This document shows positions 6,413-48,203 of a stretch of DNA of 64,000 nt, piece after piece. The DNA is from an uncultured Candidatus Saccharibacteria bacterium (GTDB lineage Bacteria > Patescibacteriota > Dojkabacteria > J137). Positions within the stretch are counted from its first letter, which is position 1. Each line of letters begins with the position of its first letter. The stretch spans positions 309,304 through 373,303 of the forward strand of contig OZ246402.1 of assembly GCA_965230975.1 (NCBI GenBank), read 5' to 3'. The position numbers were made by a program, and so were the translations under genes. The notes under the pieces are model-generated. The model was not told the DNA's origin. It was given only the letters and a program-made list of their open reading frames with translations, and searched no databases.

Positions 6413-8167
6413 ATGACCGATTTAGAGCTTGTAAAATCAAAACTAGATATTGTAGATGTTATATCTACTTATGTTCCAAATGTTCAGCATGCAGGTTCAA
6501 ATTTTAGGGCAAACTGTCCTTTCCACAATGAAAAGACTCCATCTTTCATGATTAATCCATCATTGCAAATTTTCAAATGCTTTGGGTGTGGAAAAGCAGG
6601 AGATGCGATTAAGTTTATTCAAGAAATTGAAAGGGTAGATTTTCCAGATGCATTAAAAATAGCAGCCGAGAAAGCAGGCGTTCAGCTAACTGGCAACTTT
6701 CAAATTAAAGATACAAAGGCGGAAGAAGAAAAAAAACGAATTCTTAAAGCAAACGAATTAACCGCTAAGTTCTATAACTACATACTTAAAACCCATAAAT
6801 TTGGTTTGCCTGGCAGAGAATATGCTCAAAAAAGAAAATTAGATGGGCAAAGAATAGACGACTTTTTAATTGGTTTTGCACCAAAATCTTATTCAATCTT
6901 AAAAAACTTTTTAAATTCAAAAGGTTTTACAGACCAAGAGTTAATTAAATTTGGACTTTTAGTAGATAGAAAAGGTAAACCAATAGATAAGTATAGAAAC
7001 AGGCTTATGCAACCAATTTTTAATGTTCAAGGCGACATTATTGGGTTTAGTGGTCGTTATATTGGTGAAAGCAAATTTGACCCAAAATATTTAAACTCTC
7101 CCGAAACTTTGGTTTACAAAAAAAAAGAAATCCTTTACGGGCTTTTTCAAGCTAAAGAAACCATGCGAAAAGAAAATTTTGTTGTAATGGTAGAAGGCAA
7201 TATTGATATTTTATCTTCTCATAGAATTGGAGTTAAAAATATAGTCGCACCACTTGGTACAGCTTTTACCCCCAGTCAATCTAAATTAATAAAAAGATTT
7301 TGCGAAAATATATATTTTTGCTTTGATACAGACTCGGCCGGCACCCAGGCACTTATTCGCGGTATAGAACTTGCCGAGGGTGCCGGCCTTAAACACAAAG
7401 TGGTTAACATAACGGGCTTTCAAGATGCGGATGAGCTTATTTGCAAATCTTCTAATCCGGAAATTTGGCTAGAATTAGTGAAAAATGCTTCTGATTCAGT
7501 TGAGTATTTAATTAAAAAGTTTTCTGACAATTTAGATTTGGGTACTGCACAGGGCAAAGCCACTTTTAGGGATCAAATAATTCCGGTTATAAACACTATA
7601 AAAGATGAAGTTACATTAACTCATTACTCAAAAAAGGTTGCTATGATGTTAGATGTAACTCCTGAAACCATTCTTAAAAAATTTAATAGTCAAGAAAATC
7701 AAGTCCATACAGTTGAACAATTACCCACATCAAAACATTCTTCTAAAAAAGATCAGTTCGAATTATATTTCTTGGCATATATAATTAATTTGCTAGATCA
7801 TTCCATGCTTAAAGATATTCCAGAAGATATTTTTTCTAACCAACCATACAAAGAAATTTTCAAAATAATAAAGTCATCTAAACAAGATTACGACTTGGGT
7901 GAGATAGCTGAATCTCTGCAAGAATCTTTAAAGTCACATTTTGAGGAAGTGGTTTTATTAGATTTACCTCAAGGTGAAAAGGCAAAAGAGGAGTTTCAAA
8001 AAATATATTTCTCTATTATGAGAAGTTATTATTTAATGCAACTTAAAAAGCTCAAAATGGATATGGCAAAAGATGAAGATAGCGAAAATCTTTTAGCAGA
8101 TTTAGATAAAACAACAAAGGCAATTCAAAAATTGGAGAAAACTAAGGGTAGAGACTTATTAAATTAG
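6413..8167 (+). CDS. dnaG: DNA primase DnaG
   Basis: CHC2 zinc finger 'CPFHNEKTPSFMINPSLQIFKCFGCGKAGD'. The TOPRIM region contains 'VMVEGNIDILS'. The ORF is open from a GTG at 6398; the ATG at 6413 (MTDLELV...) is the more likely start. Confidence 0.9.
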   Translation: MTDLELVKSKLDIVDVISTYVPNVQHAGSNFRANCPFHNEKTPSFMINPSLQIFKCFGCGKAGDAIKFIQEIERVDFPDALKIAAEKAGVQLTGNFQIKDTKAEEEKKRILKANELTAKFYNYILKTHKFGLPGREYAQKRKLDGQRIDDFLIGFAPKSYSILKNFLNSKGFTDQELIKFGLLVDRKGKPIDKYRNRLMQPIFNVQGDIIGFSGRYIGESKFDPKYLNSPETLVYKKKEILYGLFQAKETMRKENFVVMVEGNIDILSSHRIGVKNIVAPLGTAFTPSQSKLIKRFCENIYFCFDTDSAGTQALIRGIELAEGAGLKHKVVNITGFQDADELICKSSNPEIWLELVKNASDSVEYLIKKFSDNLDLGTAQGKATFRDQIIPVINTIKDEVTLTHYSKKVAMMLDVTPETILKKFNSQENQVHTVEQLPTSKHSSKKDQFELYFLAYIINLLDHSMLKDIPEDIFSNQPYKEIFKIIKSSKQDYDLGEIAESLQESLKSHFEEVVLLDLPQGEKAKEEFQKIYFSIMRSYYLMQLKKLKMDMAKDEDSENLLADLDKTTKAIQKLEKTKGRDLLN

Positions 8168-11431: not shown

Positions 11432-11857
11432 ATGGCAAAAATATATATTGTTGCTTCGGTGGTGCTTTTTATCTTATCCGCATTTGTAGCGATTCTTTCT
11501 TATGTGCAGTACGATAGAAGTGTTAACTATTGGGGAAATGAGTGGAATGGAAGTATTTGGCTAAGCTCTGGTAATAAAAATGTCGCTGATATTAGGCTTT
11601 CAAAACAAGGTAAGGTTGGCCTTGGTTATGTTGAAAATTTATATGATGGCATACACATTAAATTTTATGATAATGGCATTGAGCTTAATTCTATAATAAG
11701 CCCTAATGAAGTATCTATTTATAAATTTGATACTCAAAATAATTTAGTGCTTGCCAACTATTCGGATCTAGTTAATCGAATAGGAGGTATTGTAGATATT
11801 ACCTACTATAAAAAATTTAGTTCCAATGCTATTTATGTAAATAATATAGTTTTATGA
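11432..11857 (+). CDS. Hypothetical membrane-anchored protein
   Basis: 141 aa. One N-terminal TM segment ('IYIVASVVLFILSAFVAILSYV'). Its stop overlaps the next ORF's start by 4 nt. Confidence 0.45.
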   Translation: MAKIYIVASVVLFILSAFVAILSYVQYDRSVNYWGNEWNGSIWLSSGNKNVADIRLSKQGKVGLGYVENLYDGIHIKFYDNGIELNSIISPNEVSIYKFDTQNNLVLANYSDLVNRIGGIVDITYYKKFSSNAIYVNNIVL

Positions 11858-12225
11858 AGATTGCTTATATACTAATAAATATTTTAACCATAATGCTAAT
11901 AGGTGCATCTATTTTCTTTTTCTTGATTTCTAGAAATACTATAAATAAAGGTGACTTTAATCTAGAATATGTAATATCTTTAGAGGATAAAAGTATTACA
12001 TTTAAAAATAATGAACTTAATATTACAGATTTAGAAAATCAAGAATTTAGCATTAAAGCATCTAGTTATGTTGGTGATATAAAGCTTTTAAGTTCGATGT
12101 TTGGTGTTATAAAACAAGGAGATAATGAGGAATTATGGGTAAATAAAGGGGATTGTAATTATATATCTATAACATTTGTATCTGCGGATAAAATTAATAA
12201 TTTATACTGTATTAAATCTATCTAA
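11854..12225 (+). CDS. Hypothetical membrane-anchored protein
   Basis: 123 aa with an N-terminal TM segment. It is translationally coupled to both flanking ORFs (ATGA overlap at 11854 and TAATG overlap at 12225). Confidence 0.45.
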   Translation: MKIAYILINILTIMLIGASIFFFLISRNTINKGDFNLEYVISLEDKSITFKNNELNITDLENQEFSIKASSYVGDIKLLSSMFGVIKQGDNEELWVNKGDCNYISITFVSADKINNLYCIKSI

Positions 12226-14849
12226 TGAAACAAAAACTATTATTTACATTAATTCTGAGTGTAGCTTTTTCACTCTCAGGGTTTATTTTACCTGCTACAC
12301 ATACAAAGGTTTCTGCACAGGCTTGTACTTGTTGGCCTCCGGGAGCTACATCTGACCAAGGTTGTATGGCCTATGGATGTCCTACTGGAACAAGAAGGGT
12401 ATGTAATTGCAATGCGGGAGGTTCAGGAGGTGCCTGCACACCCGTTGCAGGTTGTGGGTCAACTTGTGGAGGATCATGGAGCTGTTATTGTCAACCTGAT
12501 GCATCATGCGGCGGCGGAGGAGGTGGTACAGCTTGCACACCAAATGCTCAAAGATGTAATGGTTGTGACAGAGTCCAATGCTTATCGGATGGTTCTGGTG
12601 AAATAATTATAGGTCCAGGTTCGTGTTGTACACCACCGCCCCCAGCATGCACTTCTACAGCACCTGCTGCAACAACCTTGGTGTCTCCTTCGAATAATGT
12701 AACTATACCCTCTAATTCTACGACGCTAAATTGGAATTCCAACAGTGCTTGGGGAACAGGATGTCCTTCAAACAATAATCAATACAGGGTGTTTTTAAGT
12801 CAAAATTGTACGGGAACATATACTAATATTGCAAATGTGGCCAGTTCTGTAACAAACTATAATCTATCGGGATTAACTTATGGAAGTTCTTATTGCTGGT
12901 ACGTTCAAACTTCAAATGGAAGTCAAACAGCAAATAGTGCTGTTTGGAGATTCACAGTGAATAACAATCCCTCTATAACTAGTTCCACTTTTGGTGCAGA
13001 TAGTTGTGGTTACAGTACTACAGGAAGGTTTGATTCAATATCCCCTAACAAAGTAAATCCTTTGACTTTTAATGTAGGTTTTAGTGATCCCGAGGCAGAT
13101 TTATTATCCGGAATCTTTATAGGTTTTGTTCCACAAAGTGCGTTAAATGCAAATACAGTCACATATGACCAGGTGTATTCTGCAGCTACAAATAATAATT
13201 CAATTGTAACTTTGCTGGGCTATTCAACTGCTGGGGTTCTGCAGAATAACTGGAGTTATAATATGCAATCTGGTGGGGTTGAAGTTCAAAATACTCCTGG
13301 TACAGCGACCCTCTTAGGTGCAGGTACTACTTCTAAAGTTACATACATAAGTCCTGGTAATTGGAACAGTAGTGTTACTATTAGGTTTGGAAATACATAT
13401 CCATCAGGCTTACAAAATGTTTATGTGATGGCAACTGTTTTGAACCCAGATGGAACTTATTCCACACCAAACCAGGGTTCATCGAGTTTATTAATGATGA
13501 CTAAAGTGGCAACCTGGTCATTTGATATGACTAATCCAACCGGCTCAATTGTATTAAGCAACTATGTTGGCAGTAATTTTACTGCTGCATGGAGTGGTTC
13601 AGATGCAAGTGGGTTAAAAAATGCATATTCGTATATTATTGCAGGTAGTAGTGGATCGACACTAACAGATACAACTGGTGGATACGCAATTAACCCACTA
13701 GGCACTGCAGATATGAATTACCCAACACCTTCAAACGCTGGTATTGGAATTGCTAATTTGCCAACTACTAGGAATTATACATTTACAGGTGTGTCTGACT
13801 ACACACTTAAACTAGCATTAGAAGACAGAGCTTGTAACGTTTATACTGCAACTGCAGGAGCAGTTATACCTACCTCATGGATATATTCTCGAGAAGGTAT
13901 AGTTTCTGCAAATGGAGGTATTTTAAACATTAAGATTCCAACTACAGTAGGGTCAATGAATATTACTGATTTAATAACACCGAACCCACCAACCGGTAAT
14001 AGTTCTTCACCTTATACAACCGCAAATAACTTTGTTGCAGAATCTCCATTGAAACTTGGTACAGGTAGTGTAATATCAGGGACTGGTACACTTCCTACTC
14101 CAGTAGCAACTATTTCTGCCAAAGATAGGTATACTTACAACTATTCTAATCAAGCTACGACGCCAGATACTAGATCAAATACAACTAATTGGTATAGTTA
14201 TGTTCTAGATTTGCTAAATAGTAATAATGCAAGCAATATACTTGCAGAAGGAACTTCTGGTTCTATTTATATTAGCGGTTCGGTTAGCACCTATCTAAAT
14301 GCAGTACTACAATTTTATAGAGGCCCAAGTGCACTTTCAGATACAACATCTATCTATACAATTCATATCCCATCTGGGCAAATGATATTTAATACCCTTA
14401 ACTGTGATAGAAGAGTTGTATTTATCTCTCCAAACCCAATGACACTTGTTCCAAACATAACTCGTAGTGGAACTGGAGGGTGCATTTTTGTGTCTGGTGG
14501 TAACGTCACTGTCTCTGCAGGTGGAAACTTAACTACAACTCCGCTTGCTACGGGTGGTAATTCCTCTTACGATGTCATAAACGGTTATATAATTTCTAAC
14601 GGAAGTTTTATATCAACTAAAGATAATGCTCAATCAGGTCCAAGCGATACTCCAGCTACAAGACAATGGGATGGGATGCTAATCAAAGGTGGTGTTTTGG
14701 CAACCAATGTAAGCTTAAATAGAAGCTTAAATTCTAGTGGAAATGCAGATCAACCTGCAGAAATTTATCAGTACGATCCATTCTATTCACTTACCTTTAA
14801 AGATGCATTGGCAAGCAGATTCTACACAATTAGAGAATATATTCCATAA
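12225..14849 (+). CDS. Large secreted Cys-rich surface protein (signal peptide, ~110-aa Cys/Gly-rich module, Fn3-like domain, long Ser/Thr/Asn-rich beta-rich region)
   Basis: 874 aa. Predicted signal peptide ending 'VSAQA'. Cys-rich stretch CTCWPPG...CCTPPPPAC. An Fn3-like segment 'LNWNSNSAWG...YCWYVQTSNG...WRFTV'. No C-terminal anchor. Confidence 0.6.
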   Translation: MKQKLLFTLILSVAFSLSGFILPATHTKVSAQACTCWPPGATSDQGCMAYGCPTGTRRVCNCNAGGSGGACTPVAGCGSTCGGSWSCYCQPDASCGGGGGGTACTPNAQRCNGCDRVQCLSDGSGEIIIGPGSCCTPPPPACTSTAPAATTLVSPSNNVTIPSNSTTLNWNSNSAWGTGCPSNNNQYRVFLSQNCTGTYTNIANVASSVTNYNLSGLTYGSSYCWYVQTSNGSQTANSAVWRFTVNNNPSITSSTFGADSCGYSTTGRFDSISPNKVNPLTFNVGFSDPEADLLSGIFIGFVPQSALNANTVTYDQVYSAATNNNSIVTLLGYSTAGVLQNNWSYNMQSGGVEVQNTPGTATLLGAGTTSKVTYISPGNWNSSVTIRFGNTYPSGLQNVYVMATVLNPDGTYSTPNQGSSSLLMMTKVATWSFDMTNPTGSIVLSNYVGSNFTAAWSGSDASGLKNAYSYIIAGSSGSTLTDTTGGYAINPLGTADMNYPTPSNAGIGIANLPTTRNYTFTGVSDYTLKLALEDRACNVYTATAGAVIPTSWIYSREGIVSANGGILNIKIPTTVGSMNITDLITPNPPTGNSSSPYTTANNFVAESPLKLGTGSVISGTGTLPTPVATISAKDRYTYNYSNQATTPDTRSNTTNWYSYVLDLLNSNNASNILAEGTSGSIYISGSVSTYLNAVLQFYRGPSALSDTTSIYTIHIPSGQMIFNTLNCDRRVVFISPNPMTLVPNITRSGTGGCIFVSGGNVTVSAGGNLTTTPLATGGNSSYDVINGYIISNGSFISTKDNAQSGPSDTPATRQWDGMLIKGGVLATNVSLNRSLNSSGNADQPAEIYQYDPFYSLTFKDALASRFYTIREYIP

Positions 14850-42259: not shown

Positions 42260-44164
42260 ATGAAAATAAAATTAATTTACCTTTTTTTATTGCTATTAGT
42301 AAGCTTTTGTTTACTAATTATTAGCTCTAAAATAATTAAGGCACAAGAAGTTACTTTGTTTATAAGTGAATTTTTGCCGGACCCCGAAGGTTCTGATTCT
42401 GGGAAAGAGTGGGTAGAAATTTTTAATAATTCAAATCAAAGTCTAACTATAAGTGCATGGAAAATAAAAAATACTTCATCTAGCGGTACTGTTAGAAATA
42501 TAGTTATTCCAAATGTTACTATAAATGCAAACCAGTACTTATTAATTGCAGATTCTAGTAATATAATTTTGCCAACTGCGAATAATTCAATAATAGTATA
42601 TTTACCACTTGGGAATGTTAATTTATTTAATACAAATTCCAAATTAGAGTTAATAAATGATTTATCTATAACTGTAGATTCACTAGATTACCTATCTTCG
42701 TCTGAAAATATAAGCTGGGAAAGAACAGGCCCTTATTGCAGTATTTTAGAAAAAAGTTTAACTGCAAATACATTAGGGCTTAATAACTCTCAAACTTCTT
42801 CACAGTGCTGGTCAATAACTCAAATTGCAAGTTACCCAAATCAAAACGAGCAAATACAGACTGTCGTATCAGAACCCATTGTCTATCTGCCATCTTATCC
42901 ATCAACACCTCAAGTAATTACGGAAGGCTTTTATAATACCAAATTACAAATAACAGAAATATACGCATCTCCACAAACAGGGGAAAAAGAGTGGGTGGAA
43001 GTTTACAATAATAGTAATGAGACAATAGAACTAACACAATTCAAATTATCTGAAGTAAATAGCTCAGATGTTTATGAGAAGTTTATGAGTTTGAATGGGC
43101 AAATAAATCCATATCAGTATTTGGCAATCGAAACAAGCACCATTACTTTAAATAATACTGGCGATCAATTAGCATTATTTTATAAACAAGAGTTAATTGA
43201 TCAAATAGACTACCCAAGCTTATCGAAAGGGGAGTCTTACTCTAGGGGTTTTAGAAATAATCAGTATAGCAATGATTGGTTTGTAACATCTAAAGTTACA
43301 AAATCTAGTTTGAATGCAAGTAACGAAATAGAGTTTATTCCATTAAGTCAAATTACCAACTACCAAACTGGAATAGTAATTAAAACAAAAGGGTGTATTA
43401 GTTTTATTAAAAGTGTTATGCCAGATAACTATGCTTACTTTATTAGTGATACTTACAGTTTAAAAGTTAAATTTATAGATGATAGTGATTTAAATATAGA
43501 TGATTGTTTAGAACTTACGGGTAAGCTTATTAAAACAAGTAAAGATAGTTACTTTTATGTGTCTAGTTATACTTTTTTAAACCAAAGTTTAAACAATAAT
43601 TATATAAATATAAATGGTGAGACAACATTTATTAACTTTGAAGGCAAATACGTTAGCCTAAGTGGTGTAAGTATTAAACGTAACTATACTTATTCACTTT
43701 TGCTTTCTAATGACTTAAAAATGAAGTATCCAGAAGATTTTGACCCTAATGATTATTCATCTGAAGATAGCATTAATATTGAGGGAGTAATTATAAAGTT
43801 AACTAATAGTTATTATATTTACCCATTTACTATTGAAAAAGAGCAAAGTGTATTGGGAGCAATCAGATATTCAGATGAAAATCTCTCAAATAAGCTTTCA
43901 GGTAATAATAATTCTAAGACTGTCGAACAAAATAAATTGAATTTAATTCAGCCAAATACTATAAAGATTCCAATAGCATACTTTCTATTACTTTTATGGA
44001 TTTTAGCGCATATCGTTATATTCAATAGAAATATTATTGCTTTAAAATTAAAGGTAGATAAATTTATGAAAGAAAGGGTAAAATACATGAATGCCAAAAC
44101 AACTTCATATTTTGGGAAAGACATATTTCATAGAAATTTTTCCAAAGAGACTACTAAAATCTAG
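42260..44164 (+). CDS. Secreted lamin-tail-domain (LTD) protein with two LTD repeats and a C-terminal TM anchor
   Basis: 'FISEFLPDPEGSDSGKEWVEIFNNSNQSLTISAWKI' and 'LQITEIYASPQTGEKEWVEVYNNSNETIELTQFKL' match the LTD consensus. There is an N-terminal signal and a C-terminal 'IAYFLLLLWILAHIVIF' segment. Confidence 0.65.
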   Translation: MKIKLIYLFLLLLVSFCLLIISSKIIKAQEVTLFISEFLPDPEGSDSGKEWVEIFNNSNQSLTISAWKIKNTSSSGTVRNIVIPNVTINANQYLLIADSSNIILPTANNSIIVYLPLGNVNLFNTNSKLELINDLSITVDSLDYLSSSENISWERTGPYCSILEKSLTANTLGLNNSQTSSQCWSITQIASYPNQNEQIQTVVSEPIVYLPSYPSTPQVITEGFYNTKLQITEIYASPQTGEKEWVEVYNNSNETIELTQFKLSEVNSSDVYEKFMSLNGQINPYQYLAIETSTITLNNTGDQLALFYKQELIDQIDYPSLSKGESYSRGFRNNQYSNDWFVTSKVTKSSLNASNEIEFIPLSQITNYQTGIVIKTKGCISFIKSVMPDNYAYFISDTYSLKVKFIDDSDLNIDDCLELTGKLIKTSKDSYFYVSSYTFLNQSLNNNYININGETTFINFEGKYVSLSGVSIKRNYTYSLLLSNDLKMKYPEDFDPNDYSSEDSINIEGVIIKLTNSYYIYPFTIEKEQSVLGAIRYSDENLSNKLSGNNNSKTVEQNKLNLIQPNTIKIPIAYFLLLLWILAHIVIFNRNIIALKLKVDKFMKERVKYMNAKTTSYFGKDIFHRNFSKETTKI

Positions 44165-44660: not shown

Positions 44661-44692
44661 AAAAAAGCCCTCCTTTCGGAGGGCTTAATTTT
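44661..44692. terminator. Bidirectional intrinsic terminator between convergent genes
   Basis: A6 - gccctcc-tttc-ggagggc - ttaatttt. Confidence 0.6.
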
Positions 44693-44700
44693 ATGTTCTT

Positions 44701-47400
44701 CTACTTCCTTGATCTTTTTCCTTTAGCCTTATTACTTAAATCATCTATTATACTTTCTTCATAAGGTCTAAATTGAACTTTGACATTATTAACTTTCCCA
44801 TTTACAGAATCAAATACAGAACCAACTAGTTTTTCAGATAACTGATATCCAAATTTAGTTCTATATACCATCACTCCAAGAGTTATAAACATTAATCCAA
44901 CTAACAACATTCTTGCATCATCAAATATACCTGTGTTTGGTATAGCTGTTGGTGTGCAGTTTAGCAATGTTCTTAAGTCAAATGTTGTGCTGTTATCTTG
45001 AGTTGTTGATGTGTCATACTGCAATTTAGCTTGGTTAACTACACCTGGTGCTGTGAATGTTAACAAATTAGCCCTTGGAATTGTTAACGAATAAGTAAAT
45101 GTTTTTGATTGACCTGCAGTGTATGTTCTAGCAGTAGTATCACCAGTCCAAGTAATTTTACCTCCAGATACAGAACTGTATGTTGGATTAATATTAGTTG
45201 GTTGTATTCCTAGTGTTACTGCATTTGCATCATATTTGTCTTCTACAAAGTCAATTACTCCTGTTACACTACCAATGTTTTTAGCTGTAACTGTATAGTC
45301 AATTCTTGCATCTCCATCTGCTTCGCAAACAACTGCACCACTTTTTACTACATTAAATAATGGTTCAGCTTGAGCAGTTTGAGATACTGTAATGCTTTCT
45401 AAACATTCTGTTGGTGATGTTAATGCGGTTGATCCATCTAATAATACTCTTACATCATATGATCCAGCAGCTACTCCTGTTCCATTTGGTGCTGCAGATT
45501 CCCATCTGAATGTATATGTGTGAGTGCTAGTTATTGCGTCAAATGAATATGAGTATGCACTTACCAACGAACTAGATGTGTTTAATGCATCTCTTCCAAC
45601 TGGTGAGCCAGCTGTTCCTACTCTTAACCTTATATTTGGATAAGGGTTAGTTGTAGCTGGGTTTTGGTATTTCAAAACGTATTCTAAGTAGTTACCTGTA
45701 CCACTTGCTATAGGGTCATTTCCACTTTCAGTTAAATCAATACATTGTGCTGCTACTACTGTACATGTTGCTGTATTTAAAGATACAGGGTTTGTATTAA
45801 TTCCGCTTGTTGTTAAATAAACTCTTACATAATATATAGTTCCTTGTTGTAGTGTAAATGCTGTGCTACCTGTAAATCCAGTACCGTTAGTTACTGTTGT
45901 TCCAGATGGTACATTTTTGCTCCAATAGGTTGCAAAGTTTGATGTTGTTGATATATCTACTCTTACTGCTTGAGCAGGGTATGTTCCCATGTTCCAACTT
46001 ATTGTTGCTGTAGGTACTGTTGATCCTTCTGGACAAGTAGATGCTACAGTTGCAGTTGGGTTCGTTTCTGGTGTACATGTAGGTGATGTAGGATTATCAG
46101 GTAATCTACATCTATTTTCTGTACCAATGTTATAACAAGTCAAACCACTAGCACATAATATATTTGAAGAATTACAAATCTCATTACACTGAACAGTTTG
46201 AGTTGAAGGTGTATTTGGTGGATTGCCTGGAGTTGTAATTACCGTTGATGAGTTGAAACACTCAGGTTGAGCTCCACACGATGCACCCTCTCTATAGCAT
46301 TTCACTGCTCCATTAACGCTATAGCAATTATCACATTTATTACCACTTCCACCGCTAATTACATTACCACAACCTAGGAATCCGCTGGATGCAAGAGCAT
46401 AAGTCAGTGTCCCATCAGGAAGTTTGACTTCTTGACATTTTCTTAATGCCGCATTTTTTCTACATTCATCCTCTGTAAAACAAAATGCATCCTGTAAATT
46501 CTTTTGATCTGCCGTAGCACAGGAAGCACCGCAGGCATCTGTATTTATTATATCTGTTTTCCATTGGCCTAGTTGACTACATTGTACACCACTTGTTCCA
46601 CCAGTACATTTCCATGTAAAAGGAACACAAACTCCACCAGTAGGTATGGTACCTTTACTACCTGGAGAAGTACATGCAATAGTAGCCCAAACAGACTCTT
46701 GTTGAACTGTTGAACCATTTTCGTTATAACCACACCTAAATCTACCATCAATACATGAATAACATCCAAGTCCAATTCCACAGCCATCAGTTGCTGCATC
46801 ACCAGGTGTACAAGGGTCACCTATAGTTCCTAAATTAGATCCGTTATCGGACCCGCCAGTTACACTACCATTACTTGCTGTACAAGATGCACATGCTGGC
46901 TCATCTTTTGAACCTGTTGAACAACTAGCATTAGATTCTCCAGGATCACATCTTCCATCGTTTGGTCTGGCTGGGTTAATAGGTTCTCCATCTCTTGTTG
47001 TGGTTCCACAAAATCTATTTGTAGGGTACCATGATCCAGCCCTACATTGGTATTCTGCATTATATTGGTCACAAATAAAACCTTGATCTGGCGTGCCATT
47101 ACAACTAGTTGTACTACCAGTTGGAATTCCATTACCTCCATTAACTTGGGCAGAAAAACCTCCGCACTCTGGCCTAGCTGCAAAGTAGTCAGAACAACCA
47201 CAACCACAAGATTGCGAGCAACCCCATGTGCAAGCACTTGAGCTATCTGGGGCAAGGCCACTTTCTTGTGAAAGTCTATAAGCAATGAATAAAGAAACAG
47301 CAGCCAATACTACAATAAGTAGTATTAAAACGATTTTGAATACGTTCTTAGTTTGAACTTGTTGCATTGTTTTCTCCATTAAATCTATTATTAACACCAA
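44701..47400 (-). CDS. Giant Cys-rich surface protein (N-terminal signal-anchor, ~350-aa Cys-rich region, Fn3-like domain, DUF11-like repeat, C-terminal sorting-signal-like hydrophobic segment)
   Basis: 899 aa, about 60 Cys in the N-terminal third. Fn3-like segment 'TATISWNMGTYPAQ...IYYVRVYLTTSG'. 'VVCEADGDARIDYTVTAKNIGSVTGV' resembles a DUF11 repeat. 'IPNTG' plus a hydrophobic stretch plus 'RTK' lie near the C-terminus. The real start is possibly at internal Met 8 or 12. Confidence 0.6.
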   Translation of the reverse strand: MVLIIDLMEKTMQQVQTKNVFKIVLILLIVVLAAVSLFIAYRLSQESGLAPDSSSACTWGCSQSCGCGCSDYFAARPECGGFSAQVNGGNGIPTGSTTSCNGTPDQGFICDQYNAEYQCRAGSWYPTNRFCGTTTRDGEPINPARPNDGRCDPGESNASCSTGSKDEPACASCTASNGSVTGGSDNGSNLGTIGDPCTPGDAATDGCGIGLGCYSCIDGRFRCGYNENGSTVQQESVWATIACTSPGSKGTIPTGGVCVPFTWKCTGGTSGVQCSQLGQWKTDIINTDACGASCATADQKNLQDAFCFTEDECRKNAALRKCQEVKLPDGTLTYALASSGFLGCGNVISGGSGNKCDNCYSVNGAVKCYREGASCGAQPECFNSSTVITTPGNPPNTPSTQTVQCNEICNSSNILCASGLTCYNIGTENRCRLPDNPTSPTCTPETNPTATVASTCPEGSTVPTATISWNMGTYPAQAVRVDISTTSNFATYWSKNVPSGTTVTNGTGFTGSTAFTLQQGTIYYVRVYLTTSGINTNPVSLNTATCTVVAAQCIDLTESGNDPIASGTGNYLEYVLKYQNPATTNPYPNIRLRVGTAGSPVGRDALNTSSSLVSAYSYSFDAITSTHTYTFRWESAAPNGTGVAAGSYDVRVLLDGSTALTSPTECLESITVSQTAQAEPLFNVVKSGAVVCEADGDARIDYTVTAKNIGSVTGVIDFVEDKYDANAVTLGIQPTNINPTYSSVSGGKITWTGDTTARTYTAGQSKTFTYSLTIPRANLLTFTAPGVVNQAKLQYDTSTTQDNSTTFDLRTLLNCTPTAIPNTGIFDDARMLLVGLMFITLGVMVYRTKFGYQLSEKLVGSVFDSVNGKVNNVKVQFRPYEESIIDDLSNKAKGKRSRK

Positions 47401-48049
47401 TCATAGTAGTTAAAATTGCAGATGCGATTGGTTGAGTTACACTTTGATTAAGCTCCACTAAGTCAGAACAGTCTCCAAACCCTTCATAAACTATAGTTGC
47501 ATATTCAAAGTCGTTTTGCGTATGAAAAATATTAGTTCTGCACCAATTAGAACCGGTCTTATCAGAACCAAAAAAGAAATTAGAAGAATAATAATTACCA
47601 TTATCAAACTCTTCTAAAATAAATTTATTATTAATTCTTTCGTACAAAGAATCTGCAGAATCATCTATATAAGAAAACTCATTATAAGCAAAAAGCTCAA
47701 AATAAATCTTTTTTGTACCCAAAGTGTAAGTACAAGAAATAGGCATATAATCAAACCTAGAATTATTAGTAGTAGGAATATCTTTATTTTTATAAATAAT
47801 TAAATCCTCTGGAGAATTTTGAAAAATAGTTTGCCCCGAAAAAACATTTGTACAATCAAGATTTGTAAATGCCTCTACAACATCATCATAAGCGTCTCTA
47901 GTTGCAGTATCTCCAAAACCTGCAGCCCCAGAATTATTTGGTGACTGATTATTTTGCACAAGTTGAGCAAGCAAAACTGCCAACGCTCCAATTAAAATAG
48001 TCACTACAATTAATGCAATGACGATTGTTTTTTTTCTGTTGTTATTCAT
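47348..48049 (-). CDS. Hypothetical secreted protein (signal-anchor), co-oriented with and overlapping the giant Cys-rich gene
   Basis: 233 aa. TM segment 'IVIALIVVTILIGALAVLLAQL'. 4 Cys in the ectodomain. Confidence 0.5.
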   Translation of the reverse strand: MNNNRKKTIVIALIVVTILIGALAVLLAQLVQNNQSPNNSGAAGFGDTATRDAYDDVVEAFTNLDCTNVFSGQTIFQNSPEDLIIYKNKDIPTTNNSRFDYMPISCTYTLGTKKIYFELFAYNEFSYIDDSADSLYERINNKFILEEFDNGNYYSSNFFFGSDKTGSNWCRTNIFHTQNDFEYATIVYEGFGDCSDLVELNQSVTQPIASAILTTMIGVNNRFNGENNATSSN

Positions 48050-48203
48050 AAAATTGTATATGTAGATCTACTTTTACCAGTATACAGAAAACGAAATAAA
48101 AGTAAAATTAAATAAAAAACATTAGATATATTAGCTAATATAAATTATCAGAATTAAATAAAGAAATCTAGCCTAAAATTAAATGCTTAGCTATAATTCA
48201 AGT

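Follow-up and report, generated by a model that had tools for sequence, protein, structure and literature searches.

Bacteria of the candidate phyla radiation (CPR, or Patescibacteria) are mostly obligate epibionts, and the way in which they recognize and attach to their hosts is largely unknown. In Firmicutes, surface proteins pair YSIRK-G/S or KxYKxGKxW signal peptides with a C-terminal LPXTG sorting signal. Both large Cys-rich exported proteins and sortases have already been reported in CPR: a sortase is present in more than half of CPR genomes, where MdbA-like disulfide oxidoreductases are also enriched and their genes often neighbor VKOR (PMC6744442), and Peribacteria encode large exported Cys-rich proteins in genomes that also specify a sortase and a disulfide-forming protein (PMC4736985). 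Two further systems invite comparison, namely the CLIPPER/DUF11 fibrillar adhesins, long surface proteins with a CnaA-like domain in the stalk beside the sorting domain (PMC12617251), and the cleaved LPXTG remnants (C-peptides) of Streptococcus gordonii, which act as signals (as cited in PMC11502775). Here, we describe a gene on the minus strand of a 64,000-nucleotide stretch of contig OZ246402.1 (hereafter, the window) that encodes a putative CPR adhesin with a Cys-rich head, an immunoglobulin (Ig)-like stalk and an unusual C-terminal module, in which an IPNTG motif and a hydrophobic helix are followed by a long, conserved tail.

The locus represents a candidate CPR adhesin for host recognition or attachment. 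Judging from sequence comparisons, its N-terminal leader and long-tailed C-terminal module appear to form a new variant of known surface-protein signals, and the module is carried by at least about a hundred protein clusters.

A long-tailed C-terminal module and its family

The earlier note on this DNA, made from the sequence alone, listed an open reading frame (ORF) of 899 codons at 44701..47400 on the minus strand. This frame is present, and its maximal form reaches a TTG codon at 47400. The ATG at 47367 is the likely start, since it is preceded by GGAG and the same start is used by an identical database protein (P0001, 888 amino acids [aa]) and by an independent assembly (locus L134) that matches the window at 100% identity over 12.7 kb, the tail included. 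The protein would thus have 888 aa instead of 899, and residues are numbered on the 888-aa form throughout.

The C terminus reads NCTPTAIPNTG, IFDD, ARMLLVGLMFITLGVMVY, and RTK, followed by 50 more residues, which bears out the earlier reading of an IPNTG motif, a hydrophobic segment, RTK, and ~50 further residues. The helix (residues 818-835) reaches a hydropathy of 2.15 over a 17-residue window. Behind it, the tail begins with RTK and a juxtamembrane block (FGYQLSEKLV), continues with PYEESI (44749..44766), and is rich in Lys/Arg at its end, with 12 Lys/Arg residues and 6 Asp/Glu residues overall.

Word-indexed searches yielded 5 + 2 homologues, and an eighth (the L005 protein) came from a genome scan; these searches badly understated the size of the family. 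All eight close homologues keep a Cys, the motif [IL]P[NDSA]T[GAS], an acidic stretch of the [IL]FD[DE] type, and the helix. Their tails, 40-66 aa long, all include a (P)(Y/F)E(E/K)x(I) element and are rich in Lys at the end. An exhaustive HMMER profile search over 1.84 billion cluster representatives (50% identity) recovered 519 proteins at E<=1e-3, including 290 at E<=1e-10 and 73 at E<=1e-30, and the best 150 of these 519 matches were used for the module statistics. Among the 150, the succession of [LIV]PxT[GASN], [IL]FD[DSEN], a hydrophobic helix, and a tail was found in 118, the remaining 32 being mostly giant DUF11-repeat proteins or members of a subfamily with a degenerate motif. The Pro is present in 113 of the 118 and the Thr in 117, while the fifth position is occupied by Gly (n = 80), Ala (n = 21), Ser (n = 10), or Asn (n = 7).

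Tail length is mostly 26-70 aa (median, 43-45), and Lys/Arg account for 25% of the residues, with a median net charge of +6. A near-terminal [FY]E[KER][KR][VIL] box, placed after Lys/Arg and 8-20 residues from the end, occurs in 96 of the 118 tails. Short tails are rare: two, of 11-13 residues, were the only ones seen among members with intact C-termini in the best 150, and two actinobacterial-type giant DUF11 proteins in the match list have LAxTG and 9-12 further residues. In an alignment of 21 diverse members (alignment A5), the Pro, Thr, and Asp of the motif region are invariant, and the Gly, the Phe, the Gly of the transmembrane (TM) helix, and the Glu of the box are nearly so. Two matters that the earlier note had left to comparison with homologues, the position of the xPxTG-type motif and the persistence of the tail, are both settled in favor of conservation, in the close homologues and in the large family alike.

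A metagenome scan with a DNA pattern contributed three contigs with, between them, four true members of the long-tailed kind, as well as several LPxTG-LFD proteins with short tails. Most of its output was noise, and a recurring unrelated reading, MP[DE]TGLFDEPTRPA, accounted for much of this; the reading probably stems from another frame of a conserved gene. In the short-tailed proteins (L020, L027, L055, L100, and L105; GC content, 0.46-0.64), LPxTG-LFD and a helix lead into a short Arg/Lys tail of the canonical kind, and their contigs are probably not from CPR. An [IL]FD extension therefore also occurs outside the long-tailed form.

Neither Pfam nor NCBIfam has a model for the module. The sorting models that it touched were all of the sortase type (LPXTG_anchor, NPXTG, and LAVTG), each below its cutoff and the latter two weakly; LPXTG_anchor matched 2 of the 21 aligned relatives at E<=10. 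The NCBIfam models for exosortase, archaeosortase, and rhombosortase signals (PEP-CTERM, PGF-CTERM, and GlyGly-CTERM) gave no match at E<=10 in seven isolated C-termini or in the 21 members. The module shares with LPXTG signals (TIGR01167/Gram_pos_anchor) an N-terminal export signal on the same protein, a [LIV]PxT[G/A/S/N] motif that lies shortly ahead of a helix, and a basic RTK after the helix. It differs from them in tail length (26-70 aa in the family and 53 in the window, not roughly 5-10), in the conserved blocks of the tail with their near-terminal [FY]E[KR][KR][VIL] box, in the [IL]FD that follows the motif, and in a pentapeptide that is degenerate in one subfamily. Neither the long-tailed module nor the leader dealt with below was found described in Pfam, NCBIfam, or the searchable literature, and a profile built on the two could flag at least about a hundred unnamed clusters of CPR surface proteins.

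Leader, variable head, stalk, and partner gene

Full-length members of the family start with a basic stretch and a hydrophobic helix of ~20 residues, after which the pattern h-region-[YW][RK][LV][SN]Q-x2-4-[VA][AT]P[ETD][DES][ST]xA recurs, as in AYRLSQESGLAPDSSSA (window), LLWRVNQPDTVAPTDSDA, and IGWRLSQEEEVTPEEGEA. No NCBIfam model matches this leader, which co-occurs in the family with the C-terminal module. By analogy, the pair may correspond to the YSIRK-G/S or KxYKxGKxW leaders and LPXTG signals of Firmicutes, as another lineage-specific signal variant that accompanies a sortase-type C terminus; the motifs themselves are unrelated, and that of the present family (…[YW]R[LV][SN]Q…[VA][AT]P[ETD][DES][ST]xA) lies downstream of the h-region. 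Two loci (L003, 2054..3628; L131, 8594..9964) encode near-wholly Cys-rich proteins that lack an Ig-like stalk and have the same leader and long-tailed module. The end modules therefore travel with different ectodomains.

The extreme Cys-richness noticed earlier is real, as the adhesin contains 46 Cys, 41 of them within residues 56-470, and a subset of the head Cys is invariant among homologues. AlphaFold2 (AF2) confidence stays below 50 across the head, leaving aa ~46-445 unmodeled; the head has no Pfam match, and sequence searches of Pfam, NCBIfam, and PDB returned no meaningful match for the head, the leader, or the tail. A Cys module of ~40 aa, QCNxxC-x5-7-C-x5-C-x5-8-CRLPxNPTSxxC, is present once in the window protein (aa ~394-431, about 46075..46188) and at least three times each in P0004 and P0063, again with no Pfam match. 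Other members (P0007 and L074) have CGDG...E.CD repeats, which we take to resemble the Myxococcus cysteine-rich repeat. In general description, the adhesin can be likened to the Cys-rich proteins of Peribacteria, which are also large, secreted, very high in Cys, and from CPR; the report on them (PMC4736985) gives neither the leader nor the tailed C-terminal module.

The head is also hypervariable. A contig from a different sample (L008/L135) is 98.8-99.1% identical to the window at the nucleotide level over ~17 kb, except in 46301..47161. Inside this cassette, whose counterpart in L008 is 7034..7855, only one 108-bp piece aligns with L008, at 88% identity. At the protein level, residues 1-44 and 391-888 of the adhesin are 100% identical between the window and L008, residues 45-390 are 37-63% identical with indels, and the partner protein encoded next to the adhesin is identical in the window and the L008/L135 strain. 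One head segment, …CATADQKNLQDAFCFT…, is common to the window protein and the distant P0005 and is missing from the near-identical strain, which points to mosaic recombination. An origin from a diversity-generating retroelement or a silent cassette was considered and found unsupported, as the window holds no second or silent copy of the cassette, and a replacement of 860 bp with indels does not resemble the outcome of adenine-directed mutagenesis. A head swapped between ~99%-identical strains is the pattern expected under diversifying pressure at a cell-cell interface, and it adds to the biological interest of the locus.

A full-length AF2 model (mean predicted local distance difference test score [pLDDT], 48.9) separates an N-terminal helix, the unmodeled Cys-rich region, three beta-sandwiches, a TM helix (818-837), and a helical tail of low confidence. 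The beta-sandwiches (aa ~437-535, 540-661, and 670-800; pLDDT about 55-89) each have a Cys at both ends, and Foldseek related the model only to generic tandem Ig/fibronectin type III stalks (e.g., integrin legs, gp130, and SdrG). The Fn3-like domain proposed earlier accordingly stands as a predicted beta-sandwich and fails as a profile assignment, since Pfam fn3 (PF00041) had no match in the adhesin at E<=1.

As judged by family profiles and alignment, the last stalk domain is a member of the DUF11/CLIPPER superfamily. DUF11 is matched by 17 of the 21 aligned relatives at E<=0.01 (best E, 1.4e-9), DUF7927 by 12, and the NCBIfam DUF11 repeat model by 11, and TIGR04226, the RrgB isopeptide domain model, weakly matches the window protein. 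The DUF11-like repeat of the earlier note is hence DUF11-like at the family level, and it is one domain rather than a repeat. Lys675, Asp710, and Asn778 are invariant in the 21-member alignment, in which Cys681 and Cys804, flanking the domain, are near-invariant. With Asp at K+35 and Asn at K+103, the triad matches in spacing those of DUF7927 (+36/+100) and of the CLIPPER crystal structure 9IFR (+33/+91) (PMC12617251), and this match, together with the invariance of the triad, leads us to predict an intramolecular Lys675-Asn778 isopeptide bond. The likeness to CLIPPER/DUF11 adhesins (PMC12617251) thus extends to the CnaA-like domain, the spacing of its Lys/Asp/Asn triad, and its place in the stalk of a long surface protein beside the sorting domain. 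The differences are that here the domain is single instead of tandemly repeated, its Pfam score is below threshold, and an extra conserved disulfide is predicted to bracket it.

The co-oriented 233-aa gene that had been seen to overlap the adhesin start lies at 47348..48049, and its stop end overlaps the start of the adhesin gene by 20 nt. The partner protein has an N-terminal TM leader that ends in a QNNQSP..A.GFGD motif and resembles the leader of the adhesin family, and it lacks a C-terminal anchor. A partner gene stands directly 5' of the adhesin gene in the window, L001/L004, L003/L006 (two pairs), L008/L135, L130 (a metagenome-assembled genome labeled Ca. Dojkabacteria), and L131 (two pairs), with stop and start codons that overlap or nearly abut in every pair. 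The partner is conserved and translationally coupled with the adhesin, probably in a two-gene operon. We tentatively assign it a PknH-sensor-like fold from a structural model of low confidence (pLDDT 57); no sequence or Pfam match to PknH_C was found, and, compared with the PknH extracellular sensor and PknH_C-like mycobacterial envelope proteins, the partner has no kinase domain. The idea that the partner is a hidden sortase was rejected, since the candidate His is Asn in L001 and the four invariant Cys look structural.

Proposed processing and role of the module

We lean towards the view, which seems to us somewhat probable, that the protein is a stalked, disulfide-rich CPR adhesin and that its C-terminal module is a CPR-specific variant of a sortase sorting signal. 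The two-gene operon would then supply a small membrane-anchored partner and a large surface adhesin, the latter being exported through Sec by means of its lineage-specific leader and folded oxidatively outside the cell. The variable, disulfide-knotted head would be the likely ligand- or host-binding part, and the constant stalk would comprise three disulfide-stapled Ig-like domains, of which the membrane-proximal one, of the CLIPPER/DUF11 type, would lock itself through its Lys-Asn isopeptide bond. The TM helix and tail would keep the precursor in the membrane, where a sortase-type transpeptidase would cut after the Thr and fix the ectodomain to the envelope. With its conserved [FY]E[KR][KR] box, the tail would stay on the membrane remnant and could function in retention or docking, or offer a handle by which the remnant is cleared, for instance by FtsH or a site-2 protease. 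For FtsH to begin the degradation of a membrane protein, a cytoplasmic tail about 20 residues long is required. The C-peptides of S. gordonii offer a possible parallel, in that a membrane remnant left by sortase can have a function of its own; the streptococcal remnants have short tails and act via the TM helix, whereas here the long conserved tail would be the functional part.

We favor the sortase-variant reading because Pro and Thr are fixed just before the helix, because Gly, Ala, Ser, and Asn at motif position 5 fall within the range known for sortase classes, and because sortase-type models were the only ones touched. It also draws on the existence of short-tailed LPxTG-LFD signals and on the frequency of sortases in CPR (PMC6744442). 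Several observations weigh against it. A screen of ORFs for a His...TLxTC...Arg pattern detected no sortase in the 64-kb window or in ~130 fetched loci, its matches being spurious (e.g., a patatin-like protein), and a Pfam scan of the anchored ORFs of the window returned FKBP, VanY, DUF2207, and LTD and no sortase, in agreement with the earlier note. The isolated 32-aa signal of the window protein scores 14.0 bits with LPXTG_anchor (TIGR01167) and that of a relative 13.4, both short of the cutoff of 15.9, and the short charged terminal tail that defines LPXTG signals is replaced by ~50 residues. Moreover, in one large subfamily the motif is degenerate and reads C-x-V-[P/S]-T-G-I-F-D, P and T being directly adjacent, so that the universal core is T-[GAS]-[IL]-F-D, not LPxTG, plus the helix with its conserved Gly and the FE box. 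In the stalk, too, the window protein scores only 16.2-19.4 bits with DUF7927 (PF25549), below the cutoff of 31, and remains below the Pfam threshold for DUF11 (PF01345).

Two of these points, the lack of a sortase near any member in the fetched loci and the degeneration of LPxTG in a subfamily that retains TG-IF-D and the tail box, would also suit a protein that is never cleaved. Here, the C-terminal helix would act as a stop-transfer sequence and permanent bitopic anchor, T-G-[IL]-F-D as a structural juxtamembrane motif, and the tail as a docking site for a cytoplasmic or membrane partner, like the tail of an integrin or cadherin. The two or three conserved blocks of the tail, which go beyond charge alone, are consistent with this, as are the predicted C-terminal TM helices of PamC and PamD (proposed chaperones) and PamR (anchoring) in the CPR Pam pilus, where the proposed role of PamR is to hold the filament at the membrane (10.64898/2026.03.03.709456). 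Such permanent anchoring is possible; we nonetheless consider it unlikely, given that near-invariant Pro and Thr at a fixed spacing before the helix are the signature of enzymatic recognition and that no models other than sortase-type ones were touched. Housekeeping sortases, besides, are usually not encoded beside their substrates. The co-occurrence of leader and C-terminal module could alternatively reflect a dedicated pathway with a different processing enzyme, either a non-sortase protease or transpeptidase, such as an intramembrane site-2 protease, or an unrecognized CPR sorting enzyme. In four loci (L009, L063, L074, and L133), family members do follow immediately downstream of frr and a gene for an M50 site-2 protease, but these contexts share backbone synteny (frr-M50, with rpsB and tsf upstream in L063 and L133, where the contig extends that far) and probably go back to one lineage event; the adjacency may reflect where insertion occurred in one lineage and imply no link in function. 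Site-2 proteases, moreover, normally cut type II helices, which would fit the N-terminal leader better. A conserved, unannotated polytopic membrane protein of ~500 aa adjoins adhesin clusters in L003, L130, and L131, but searches of Pfam and PDB by sequence gave no match for it, and the window contains neither it nor an M50 gene. We regard another enzyme as an improbable explanation.

The CnaA-type isopeptide domain, the weak TIGR04226 match, and the tandem arrangement of family members in several loci bring to mind a pilus-like polymer, in which a sortase would join subunits head-to-tail, the C-terminal Thr of one to a Lys of the next, and produce a fiber instead of a wall-anchored monomer. 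We hold this to be very improbable, since no pilin-motif Lys was identified, no pilus-type sortase adjoins any cluster in the fetched loci, and the heads are large and differ from protein to protein, whereas pilins are repetitive. As for the tail being an artefact of annotation or assembly (a lost stop codon or a frameshift), nothing but its unusual length speaks for this, and the idea is refuted: the tail's length class and motifs are kept in homologues at 35-82% identity and in >100 cluster representatives, and the sequence is identical in the independent assembly L134. A broader proposal, which we regard as doubtful, is that the leader, T-[GAS]-[IL]-F-D, and the FE-box tail define a CPR-specific surface pathway beyond simple sortase anchoring, built either on a bitopic adhesin coupled to a cytoplasmic partner or on a cleaved, tail-bearing remnant that, as a signal or a substrate of regulated degradation, reports adhesin deployment. 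The sortase-variant reading raises its own questions, namely whether a CPR sortase uses an extended signal, and what a conserved tail of 40-70 aa adds where a few basic residues suffice.

The frr-M50 contigs (GC content, 0.30-0.38) carry one or two family members, in tandem (L009, 203..3525; L063, 2300..6639; L074, 4651..8737; L133, 4979..10121). The polytopic protein (L003, 455..2044; L130, 13869..15404; L131, 7106..8530) shows 30-48% identity among its three copies; it presumably resembles HTTM/vitamin-K-carboxylase-like proteins, a likeness that Pfam and PDB sequence searches did not confirm.

Features of the locus and neighboring genes

Table 1. Coordinates of features at the adhesin locus (positions in the window; residues of the 888-aa form)
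Feature	Position	Strand	Basis
Adhesin gene, 888 aa + stop	44701..47367	-	Frame, start context, P0001/L134
N-terminal leader, aa 1-45	47233..47367	-	Basic n-region, ~22-aa hydrophobic helix, then YRLSQESGLAPDSSSA
Cys-rich head, aa 46-445, ~10% Cys	46033..47232	-	Composition, homologue alignment
Hypervariable cassette, ~860 bp, aa ~70-356	46301..47161	-	Comparison of window and L008
Fn3-like beta-sandwich, aa 437-535, two-Cys bracket	45763..46059	-	AF2 strands (pLDDT about 55-75), Foldseek generic
Second Ig-like domain, aa 540-661, two-Cys bracket	45385..45750	-	AF2
DUF11/CLIPPER-type (CnaA-like) domain, aa 667-804	44956..45369	-	Family profiles, triad
Sorting motif IPNTG-IFDD, aa 809-817	44917..44943	-	Homologue alignments
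C-terminal TM helix, aa 818-835, conserved Gly	44863..44916	-	Hydropathy, AF2 helix 818-837, alignment
Predicted cytoplasmic tail, aa 836-888, 53 aa	44704..44862	-	Homologue conservation, family statistics
Partner gene, 233 aa	47348..48049	-	TM leader, four invariant Cys
Bidirectional intrinsic terminator between adhesin gene and convergent YgjP-like gene	44665..44686	.	9-bp stem, 6 GC pairs, T-runs on both strands
Sigma-70-like promoter candidate upstream of partner gene	48079..48106	-	Consensus scan, 9/12 match; weak evidence

The window is of low GC content and contains a ribosomal-protein operon, secY, and map; next come the gene for an LTD-domain protein and the YgjP-like gene. The neighbor labels are taken from Pfam, including Pfam labels on matching neighbors in L001/L008. 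The locally raised GC content reported before holds, at 0.37-0.41 for the adhesin locus against ~0.31 for the window. By contrast, the opposite-strand ORF that the earlier note placed at 45887..47285 is not a single frame; the only extra frames at the adhesin locus are one of 107 codons on the plus strand (46763..47083) and two alternative frames on the same strand as the gene. The promoter candidate listed in Table 1 counts as weak evidence because promoter-like sites are not enriched in that region.

The lineage of the bacterium is clearly CPR, and its finer label within CPR is uncertain. Relatives in GTDB genomes bear the label "uncultured Ca. Saccharibacteria," and the public labels of close relatives conflict, L004, L005, and L006 being "uncultured Ca. 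Saccharibacteria" and L130 being "Ca. Dojkabacteria."

The LTD-domain neighbor (42260..44164, plus strand) ends in IQPNTIKIP, a hydrophobic helix, and a basic tail of ~45 aa; this C terminus is not kept in the L001 orthologue, and the L130 orthologue has a different helix and tail. The protein at 12225..14849, which had been taken for a paralogue of the adhesin, shows no detectable homology to it (BLASTP best E, 0.27; hhalign probability, 0.8%), so that the likeness is one of composition and architecture only; its signal peptide is cleavable and of the ordinary AQA type, and its C terminus lacks an anchor. In the region 11432..14849 of the window (plus strand), this 874-aa protein, which has a 19-Cys region, a weak N-terminal fn3/DUF4962 match, and a long unannotated region, is preceded by two small proteins (141 and 123 aa), each with a single TM segment and with stops and starts that overlap.

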